64,000 nt of DNA from Paenibacillus sp. (GTDB lineage: Bacteria > Bacillota > Bacilli > Paenibacillales > YIM-B00363). The translations under genes were made by a program, and so were the position numbers. The stretch lies in the NCBI GenBank assembly GCA_032117095.1, contig JAULZZ010000122.1, forward strand, positions 168-64,167. Reading direction: 5' to 3'. The notes beneath the pieces were generated by a model. The model had not been told where the DNA came from, did no database searches, and worked only from the letters and a program-made list of their open reading frames with translations. Positions 21,866 through 21,971 of this stretch are shown here, piece after piece (positions within the stretch are counted from its first letter, which is position 1; each line of letters starts with the position of its first letter).

Positions 21866-21971
21866 AATACTAAACACGGATTAAAAACGTCTATGCAGAT
21901 CGTTTCCTTTTACGAGAAAACATAGTGATTTTTAACCAATCGGTTTTCTGTATTCAAACTGTGTTTCGTAT
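21866..21971 (+). repeat. Family-1 MITE-like element, best full-length copy
   Basis: aatactaaacacggattaaaaacgtctatgcagatcgtttccttttacgagaaaacatagtgatttttaaccaatcggttttctgtattcaaactgtgtttcgtat. Confidence 0.85.

Follow-up and report, generated by a model that had tools for sequence, protein, structure and literature searches.

Insertion sequences of the IS5 family have ends of the GG/GA type, and the IS1031, ISL2 and IS427 groups within this family generate duplications of 2-4 bp. To our knowledge, Tourist/PIF-Harbinger/IS5 is the only class whose target duplication matches that of the repeat described here, which occurs in a 64-kb stretch of Paenibacillus DNA (the window, meaning the whole stretch that was analysed). 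Canonical Harbinger elements duplicate 3 bp of target and fall together with the IS5 groups IS5, IS427, IS1031, IS903 and ISL2 (PMC2213677, PMC12730594). Like the Tourist-like PIF/Harbinger MITEs of the IS5 family (PHIS), the window element is short and non-coding, carries terminal inverted repeats and is flanked by a 3-bp TAA/TTA duplication; its termini, however, begin TAC, its hosts are Bacillota, and the duplication is the one feature that points to membership.

Correia elements are very dense, lie in intergenic DNA beside gene ends and are often co-transcribed; they have a TA duplication, 26-bp terminal repeats and documented promoter, IHF and RNase III features. We know of no functional transposase partner for them in their host. 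They are ~100-155-bp MITEs of Neisseria, also named CREE or NEMIS (PMC3184786). In contrast, the window element has a 3-bp T-N-A duplication, unrelated repeats and no such functional features detected. The movement of RUP has been ascribed to an IS630-type enzyme that duplicates TA. RUP is a MITE of Streptococcus pneumoniae with a length of 107 bp (PMC3184786). RUP resembles the window element in being a MITE with many intergenic copies in a Gram-positive genome, but its sequence is unrelated and its target duplication different: the unit duplicated in the window family is 3 nt, TCA and TGA included, and not the TA dinucleotide of the Correia/RUP type.

Group A bcr repeats of the Bacillus cereus group are, like the window element, mobile intergenic repeats of Bacillales with no known transposase and a strain-variable distribution; their member bcr1 measures ~155 bp, has 5-bp direct repeats and keeps an RNA cruciform through compensatory changes (PMC3184786). 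The window element differs in its size of ~105 bp, its 3-bp duplication and its lack of a compensatory pattern beyond the termini. For Nezha of Anabaena/Nostoc, mobility was deduced from empty versus filled orthologous sites, with a candidate transposase in another genome (PMC3184786). The line of evidence is the one used here, but the IS partner ISNpu3 shares the Nezha terminal repeats and no such partner was found for the window element. Chunjie, considered as a TWA-duplicating analogue, was set aside for its 9-bp direct repeats (PMC3184786). A text search of the literature returned no prior description for the terminus sequence or for MITEs in Paenibacillus or Ruminococcus.

The evidence strongly supports the repeat being a MITE, a non-autonomous terminal-inverted-repeat DNA transposon. 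As selfish DNA it belongs to a well-known kind, within which it forms a new family; it is not a new regulatory device. We consider it very probable that this is an old, still-active MITE moved in trans, which is colonising the intergenic DNA of one Paenibacillaceae lineage.

Copies and boundaries of the family

The repeats of the window comprise ten full-length copies (subfamily A), one rearranged copy and ten diverged copies of subfamily B. These and two empty target sites are listed below by coordinates and strand, with duplicated triplets in square brackets.

21867-21971, +: best A copy, ATACTAAACAC...GTGTTTCGTAT; flanks GAA/TAA, a decayed duplication; E = 1.9e-29
1164-1268, +: A copy with degenerate right end; E = 6e-24
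3218-3321, +: A copy between convergent genes; family HMM
5564-5661, +: A copy with ~8 bp of the left arm deleted, in a divergent promoter region; family HMM
13065-13169, -: A copy of the A2 subgroup, flanks TAA/TAA, upstream of the PTS EIICBA gene
28930-29034, -: A2 copy nested in the terminus of the B copy at 28807-28931, GTGT[TTA]TAC...GTA[TTA]GTAT
30955-31062, -: A2 copy between pyk and ppk, missing in strain L105
34861-34965, +: A copy in the ppx 3' end, missing in L133-L136; TAA duplication (TTA on the ppx strand) at 34859-34861 and 34965-34967
36579-36683, +: A copy with flanks TCA/TCA, common to related strains
58436-58542, +: A copy between convergent genes; family HMM
50743-50944, -: rearranged or composite copy with both termini and ~100 bp of extra middle that has its own inverted ends
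1-114, +: B copy cut by the window start; E = 6e-29
17394-17492, -: B-like copy between a 162-aa ORF and ccpA; B HMM
22275-22402, -: full B copy, 128 nt; E = 4e-36
26160-26272, +: B copy with degenerate left part; B HMM
28807-28931, +: B copy interrupted in its right terminus by the nested A copy, the tail GTAT lying at 29037-29040 after the TTA at 29034-29036
34703-34763, -: partial B-like copy, absent from the initial annotation; E = 9e-9
38184-38313, -: B copy between citZ and icd; B HMM
56502-56590, -: diverged B-like copy; B HMM
61047-61159, +: B copy with degenerate right half; B HMM
62123-62223, -: diverged B-like copy upstream of a PDDEXK_2 gene; B HMM
34681-34683, no strand: empty target site, TGA on + and TCA on the ppx strand, filled in L133-L136
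41215-41217, no strand: empty target site, GGCGTGT[TTA]GCC, filled in the related strain L143

The ~20 copies in 64 kb counted in the initial annotation are a real repeat: the terminus motif ATACKAAACAC, at one mismatch or fewer, was counted 28 times in the window, the expectation from shuffles being 2.3. Seeded with 21866-21971, an nhmmer search of the window returned ten copies of full length at E < 1e-8; the family HMM then derived from these A copies rescored the same ten at E = 1e-21 to 1e-29, all below 1e-20; both searches also recovered the rearranged copy at 50743-50944 and weaker copies. Subfamily B is homologous to A, as a B-derived HMM matches A copies at E down to 1e-10, and its copies are longer (~128 nt, 128 model positions) and more decayed. 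The earlier list thus had the full copies, gave extents for the B copies that were too short and missed the half copy at 34703-34763.

The A copies measure 96-108 bp (full-length ones typically 103-106 bp) and are A+T-rich in a window of 49% G+C. Their termini are inverted, ATAC[T/G]AAACAC...GTGTTT[A/C]GTAT, in the form first described, with 94% of the terminal-helix cells paired across the ten copies, and the terminal inverted repeats extend over 11-17 bp (5'-TAC[T/G]AAACAC[T/G]GAT...). The mobile unit, as set by the empty and filled ppx site at 34861-34965, is TAC...GTA (103 bp). When the A copies are aligned together with 10 nt of the DNA to either side, they cease to be alike at once outside ATAC.../...GTAT, so the copies are discrete units; an origin by segmental duplication, considered in the initial annotation, fails on this unrelated flanking DNA.

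The elements are non-coding, with stop codons inside the termini, and the listed ORFs that overlap them merely traverse them. They had also been called intergenic throughout, from which the copy at 34861-34965 departs by lying in the ppx 3' end and giving the gene its stop codon. Copies fill 14 of the 17 intergenic gaps of at least 200 bp and 15 of the 28 of at least 80 bp, a high occupancy that the phrase "almost every operon boundary" overstated. A and B copies together account for 3.5% of the window bases. In the 2024 RefSeq-wide census of prokaryotic MITEs, which used different detection criteria, the highest figures are 123 per Mb and 1.23% (PMC11602168). Should the window be representative, its ~300 copies per Mb would lie well above the census figure of 123 per Mb. 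Such a density, on the same condition, would fragment short-read assemblies of this lineage, and Logan contigs do end inside copies.

Strain differences and target-site duplication

The comparison strains are represented by Logan contigs of 1.7-4.7 kb, which come from one project (SRR231261xx, several runs) and match the window at 97.4-98.3% identity. Strains differ at four of the six comparable element sites: two window copies have empty sites in relatives, and two copies of relatives have empty sites in the window. One junction is visible in two of these four polymorphisms because the contig ends inside the repeat. Precise excision instead of insertion could account for any single empty site. 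With insertion sites that differ between ~98% identical strains, the MITE family is still active and mobile in natural populations.

The ppx site provides a clean pair. Contigs L133-L136 (98.2% identical) read CGCCTC[TTA]GCAGGAAC, without the copy at 34861-34965, and the window reads CGCCTC[TTA]TACTAAACAC...GTGTTTAGTA[TTA]GCAGGAAC; the BLAST segments of the window and L133-L136 overlap by exactly 3 nt. The insertion replaced the last 10 codons of ppx, the protein ending ...LLAGTAGGGTEK in the relatives and ...LLY in the window, where the stop codon lies in the terminal repeat. Annotators should expect altered gene ends of this kind (ppx) as well as split operons (accA-pyk-ppk).

The second window copy with an empty counterpart, at 30955-31062, is missing in L105 (97.4-98% identical), which has the empty site GATTT[TAA]GAACGG with a single TAA. 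Among the copies carried by relatives, the one in L133-L136 fills the site at window 34681-34683 (...GTGG[TCA]TACTAAACACTGATTAAAAACGTCC), where the window continues uninterrupted as ...ATGG[TCA]GCATCAC, and L143 starts with 41 nt of the right arm, ...GTTTAGTA[TTA]GCC, at the site that is empty in the window at 41215-41217. Two copies are shared: 28930-29034 by the window and L105, whose contig starts inside the copy, and 36579-36683 by the window and its relatives, contigs L133-L138 starting inside it. The left flank of the L105 empty site carries one substitution and a 1-nt indel relative to the window. The polymorphic copies are ready-made strain markers, and clean empty and filled sites in natural strains make this a well-documented active MITE family in the Bacilli, where few have been described.

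The target duplication is 3 bp long and of the form T-N-A, mostly TAA/TTA with TCA and TGA cases too, and is formally indistinguishable from a 1-bp duplication between a fixed T...A. Identical triplets flank five of the nine scorable A copies of the window, one pair being TCA/TCA. The right terminus of the B copy at 28807-28931 harbours the A copy at 28930-29034, again with a TTA duplication. Both insertion polymorphism (four of six sites against ~98% identical strains) and a target-site duplication readable from empty sites, which the initial annotation had proposed to look for, are therefore present, and its MITE-like reading is borne out by the empty and filled sites, the 3-bp duplication, the nesting and the absence of copies from sister species.

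That absence concerns the two species closest to the host (pyk 84% and 79% identical): 21.7 kb of syntenic sequence from each is free of both A and B copies. Between accA and pyk, L106 has a gap of 18 bp where the window has 334 bp, and between pyk and ppk one of 40 bp where the window has 309 bp.

Pairwise identity among the A copies of the window ranges from 65 to 89% with a median of 73%, and the two copies proven polymorphic are 82-89% identical to their nearest window neighbour. This range, together with the decayed B copies, indicates long-running activity from many source copies rather than one burst, and since the copies are so diverged (median 73%), the young insertions must stem from sources beyond the window. 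Of the "recent burst" suggested initially, present activity stands, with four of six sites differing; a single burst is contradicted by the 65-89% identity and the decay of B. Judged from these divergences, the family is old and diverse, with several active lineages.

Internal motifs, gene context and possible function

When copies are folded singly, the terminal stem is the one part that their folds have in common, with z-scores from -1.6 to -5.5 for A and from -0.15 to -2.8 for B. What RNAalifold retains from the ten A copies is a terminal stem of 12 bp plus two tiny hairpins; the energy is -7.5 kcal/mol and the covariation term +0.44. The structure conserved across copies is thus the terminal stem of 11-16 bp only, and the arms of the "long bulged hairpin" reported initially are not conserved. 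Two internal motif pairs, TTAAAAA/TTTTTAA and ATGCAG/CTGTAT, combine with the terminal stem into a crossing, pseudoknot-like three-helix arrangement when the helices are specified by hand. In these internal pairs 85-90% of cells are paired and no pair has changed on both sides. The alternative pairing of GATTAAAAA with TTTTTAAC, part of the original description, persists as complementarity in 90% of cells and shows no compensatory change. Double-sided changes occur at only two terminal-repeat positions and follow subgroup lines, which is how the proposed comparison of compensatory with simply palindromic substitutions turned out. Because the three-helix model was read off the same sequences, it shows conserved inverted motifs and not RNA-level selection; these motifs are plausibly subterminal protein-binding sites.

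These observations bear on a reading in which MITE-derived copies have been co-opted as terminators, insulators, mRNA-stabilising hairpins, RNase III sites or sRNAs, a role that would account for their frequency at gene boundaries. In its favour, gene ends are found within tens of nucleotides of the copies, and co-transcription must apply to many of them, as for those between accA, pyk and ppk or the one that precedes the PBP1A start by 27 nt. The terminal stem also has a better fold than shuffled sequence (z from -2 to -5.5), and Correia and bcr1 MITEs are transcribed and can affect expression (PMC3184786). The consensus fold nevertheless reduces to the terminal inverted repeat, with the energy and covariation term given above, and the internal complementary motifs lack compensatory change. 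A terminator and promoter scan of window positions 20-40 kb found no recurrent site and no G+C-rich stem followed by a T-tract in the copies, so the arrangement of a SPRITE-like intrinsic terminator (G+C-rich stem and T-tract, orientated with transcription) is not theirs. Rfam returned nothing relevant at the gathering threshold for the whole window, or at E <= 1 for two element-rich stretches.

Orientation is likewise unbiased, both on the strand (11 versus 9) and relative to co-directional genes (7 versus 2, p ~0.18), and copies are found in tandem, convergent and divergent gene contexts, in both orientations in each. Sites are gained or lost between ~98% identical strains, and the sister species manage without copies. 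Co-option, which the initial annotation had offered as an alternative to a transposon (terminator, insulator, RNA-stability element or sRNA), is accordingly left with no covariation, terminator, promoter, orientation bias or Rfam match, and we regard it as unlikely.

Candidate transposase, relatives with the same ends and host lineage

As stated initially, the window has no transposase with matching ends: Pfam and NCBIfam searches of 20 of its larger ORFs found no DDE transposase of this kind, and the paired-terminus scan agreed. The sole match named "transposase" in the window is PDDEXK_2, which is without such ends; the PDDEXK_2 genes at 62241+ were rejected as a partner, as the upstream sequence that they share excludes the element. 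A search of the window, together with 771 kb of Oscillospiraceae loci, for paired termini 130-5000 bp apart turned up only two decayed MITEs flanking an Hpt gene. Blastn against plasmid and phage collections found no autonomous element, a single-end scan of viral contigs gave chance matches in coding sequence only, all-vs-all blastn for multi-copy segments returned none, and the metagenome hits contained no autonomous element with these termini. The IS with shared inverted repeats envisaged in the initial annotation was thus not found in the window, the 771 kb of Oscillospiraceae loci, or the metagenome/viral and plasmid/phage sets.

Our best guess is that the mobilising enzyme would be an IS5/PIF-Harbinger-type DDE transposase, for which the 3-bp TAA/TTA (T-N-A) duplication, a hallmark of PIF/Harbinger elements, is the only basis. 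Such an enzyme, encoded elsewhere and acting in trans, would bind the conserved terminal 11-20 nt, make a 3-nt staggered cut at T-N-A (mostly TAA/TTA) and leave the target duplicated on both sides. On this reading the element has colonised the intergenic DNA of one uncultured Paenibacillaceae lineage at very high density, and its effects on the host are by-products, namely wider gaps in former operons and occasional altered gene ends such as the ppx C-terminus.

The same ends occur outside Paenibacillus. With one genome scanned per species, both termini were found at a distance of 70-100 nt at no fewer than 104 loci; among the matches listed, nearly all belong to Oscillospiraceae/Ruminococcus gut MAGs, with Peptoanaerobacter and Filifactor in addition. 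The Oscillospiraceae MAGs rich in these elements include CAMBLM01, URTF01 and UQQA01. The Oscillospiraceae elements among the matches listed are ~102 bp long and share the 11-nt terminus ATACTAAACAC and a few subterminal positions with the window family; the window HMM does not detect them, and their interiors are unrelated. In 101 of 112 of the matches listed, the same triplet stands on both sides of the element (TAA 54, TTA 45, TCA 1 and TGA 1), and an orthologous pair, empty in L079 and filled in L097, displays a clean TAA duplication. Targeting of stop codons was considered for these insertions and discarded, only ~10% lying at the stop of a long ORF. A scan of JGI metagenomes with a pattern nearer the window ends found relatives in L123, L126/L127, L132 and L122/L129, which have ~20 nt of terminus in common (ATACTAAACACTGATTAAAA) and different interiors.

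Shared ends, size and duplication combined with unrelated interiors would be expected of independent MITE families served by related transposases, and an 11-nt terminus with a 3-bp duplication common to two Bacillota classes points to one transposase lineage. These elements may form a superfamily whose members are found in Paenibacillaceae, Oscillospiraceae, Peptoanaerobacter, Filifactor and unassigned metagenome contigs, and whose defining marks may be a nearly invariant TACTAAACAC terminus, a length of ~100 bp and a T-N-A duplication. Its enzyme may be widespread, possibly chromosomally resident or domesticated, and different from any catalogued IS. The joint reading, a Bacillota-wide MITE superfamily with an uncatalogued transposase and a density above the census in the Paenibacillaceae lineage, is possible but doubtful.

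Among the matches listed, 93 of 98 Oscillospiraceae insertions point the same way relative to TAA; this is typical of HUH transposition and unusual for a DDE element of the cut-and-paste type. The orientation preference favours REP/BIME-like or IS200/IS605-derived palindromes moved single-stranded by a tyrosine HUH transposase (RAYT/TnpA-Y1), as do the palindromic, extragenic and very abundant nature of the elements and the lack of a transposase nearby. HUH elements, however, make no target duplication, whereas empty and filled pairs establish one of 3 bp in both lineages. The elements have true terminal inverted repeats and no subterminal hairpins; they are 103 bp long and A+T-rich, against 20-40 bp and G+C-rich for REPs. 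To judge from the flanks, orientation and target are uncoupled in the window family, and the features of an IS200/IS605 PATE (no terminal repeats, no duplication, insertion 3' of a fixed tetra- or pentanucleotide) are not those seen here. Movement by an HUH enzyme is therefore very improbable. Least credible, to the point of being negligible, is that the copies are immobile remnants of segmental duplication or vertically inherited regulatory boxes, which has nothing beyond the repetition itself in its favour, runs against the unrelated flanks and the copy-free syntenic sister species, and is refuted by presence and absence in near-identical strains with target duplications.

For the MITE moved in trans, the most interesting loose ends are the transposase lineage shared across Bacillota classes, which is worth finding, and the orientation-specific TAA insertion in Oscillospiraceae.

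The window pyruvate kinase is 100% identical to a protein found only in Logan assemblies, 84% identical to a JGI metagenome protein, and no named Paenibacillus protein exceeds 79% identity to it; the relationships of a PhoR-like kinase are alike. The two proteins together identify the host as an uncultured, poorly sampled member of the Paenibacillaceae. An exact protein look-up of the window CcpA, CitZ and Ppx matched no record. The genes among which the copies lie are ordinary Bacillales housekeeping genes, including a PTS operon, ccpA, PBP1A, accD/accA, pyk, ppk, ppx and citZ, and the window also contains a cluster of 17 tRNAs.

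Insertion orientation and target choice

Among the matches listed for the ~102-bp Oscillospiraceae elements (Oscillospiraceae/Ruminococcus MAG loci L001-L104), the duplicated triplet is tied to the internal orientation of the element, reading TAA in the element's frame in 93 of 98 cases (108 distinct flanks). Target sites in the same set of listed matches are A-rich at +3 and +4 downstream. A cut-and-paste element whose ends are inverted does not usually insert in an orientation-specific way like this. In the window MITE family, no coupling of the duplicated triplet to element orientation was found. 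The terminus motif of the MITE itself, GTGT[TTA]G, served as the short target sequence of two independent insertions:

window 28921-28931, first insertion into GTGT[TTA]G, nested A copy
window 41210-41219, second insertion into GTGT[TTA]G, copy of the relatives at 41215

These two sites, a number too small to judge, hint at a self-like target preference.

Interiors of related elements

Some Oscillospiraceae elements carry an extra hairpin module of 17-19 bp at their exact centre (for example, AAACTGTTTTCAACAGTT), giving a length of 116-122 bp compared with 102 bp otherwise. This module is present in L009, L015, L018, L021, L022, L025, L034, L038, L039, L058, L059, L072, L086, and L088. Two metagenome relatives share the termini of the window element and possess an interior composed almost wholly of repeated ACGGATT/AATCCGT units:

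L122 2192-2300, JGI Ga0123355
L129 1550-1658, JGI Ga0123355

Duplicated and strain-variable stretches of the window

Three further features of the window are listed here:

1328-1499 and 2675-2845, duplicated non-coding stretch of ~170 bp, 87-91% identity
22603-26918, block of five ORFs between PBP1A and accD
62241-63293 and 63360-64000, pair of paralogues in tandem, both in the PD-(D/E)XK 'transposase' family (Pfam PDDEXK_2, E = 9e-24)

The five-ORF block is bracketed by B copies at 22275-22402 and 26160-26272 and is missing from the syntenic sister-species locus (L106). It encodes an FGE-sulfatase-like protein and a 574-aa protein with no match in Pfam or NCBIfam. Downstream of ppk, sequence diverges completely between the related strain (L105 4149-4178) and the window (33265 onward); this stretch varies between strains, and the junction carries no MITE terminus.

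The ~170-bp duplicates, unrelated to the MITE, are spaced 1.35 kb apart, each positioned directly 3' of one stop and 5' of the next gene, and contain a hairpin, a T-run after it and then a conserved leader. The MITE is not part of the upstream sequence common to both PDDEXK_2 genes (62241 onward), which share 78% identity over their first 300 nt. The first contains a 12-bp tandem repeat of 9+ units (63025-63187).

A short histidine kinase

window 43526-44908, PhoR/PnpS-like histidine kinase gene, 460-aa product

This kinase gene lies downstream of, and is translationally coupled to, a fumarate hydratase gene. Its product is shorter than its Paenibacillus homologues (~597 aa), and alignments span only ~83% of the window protein; its N-terminal portion, with the sensor and HAMP, seems to be missing.
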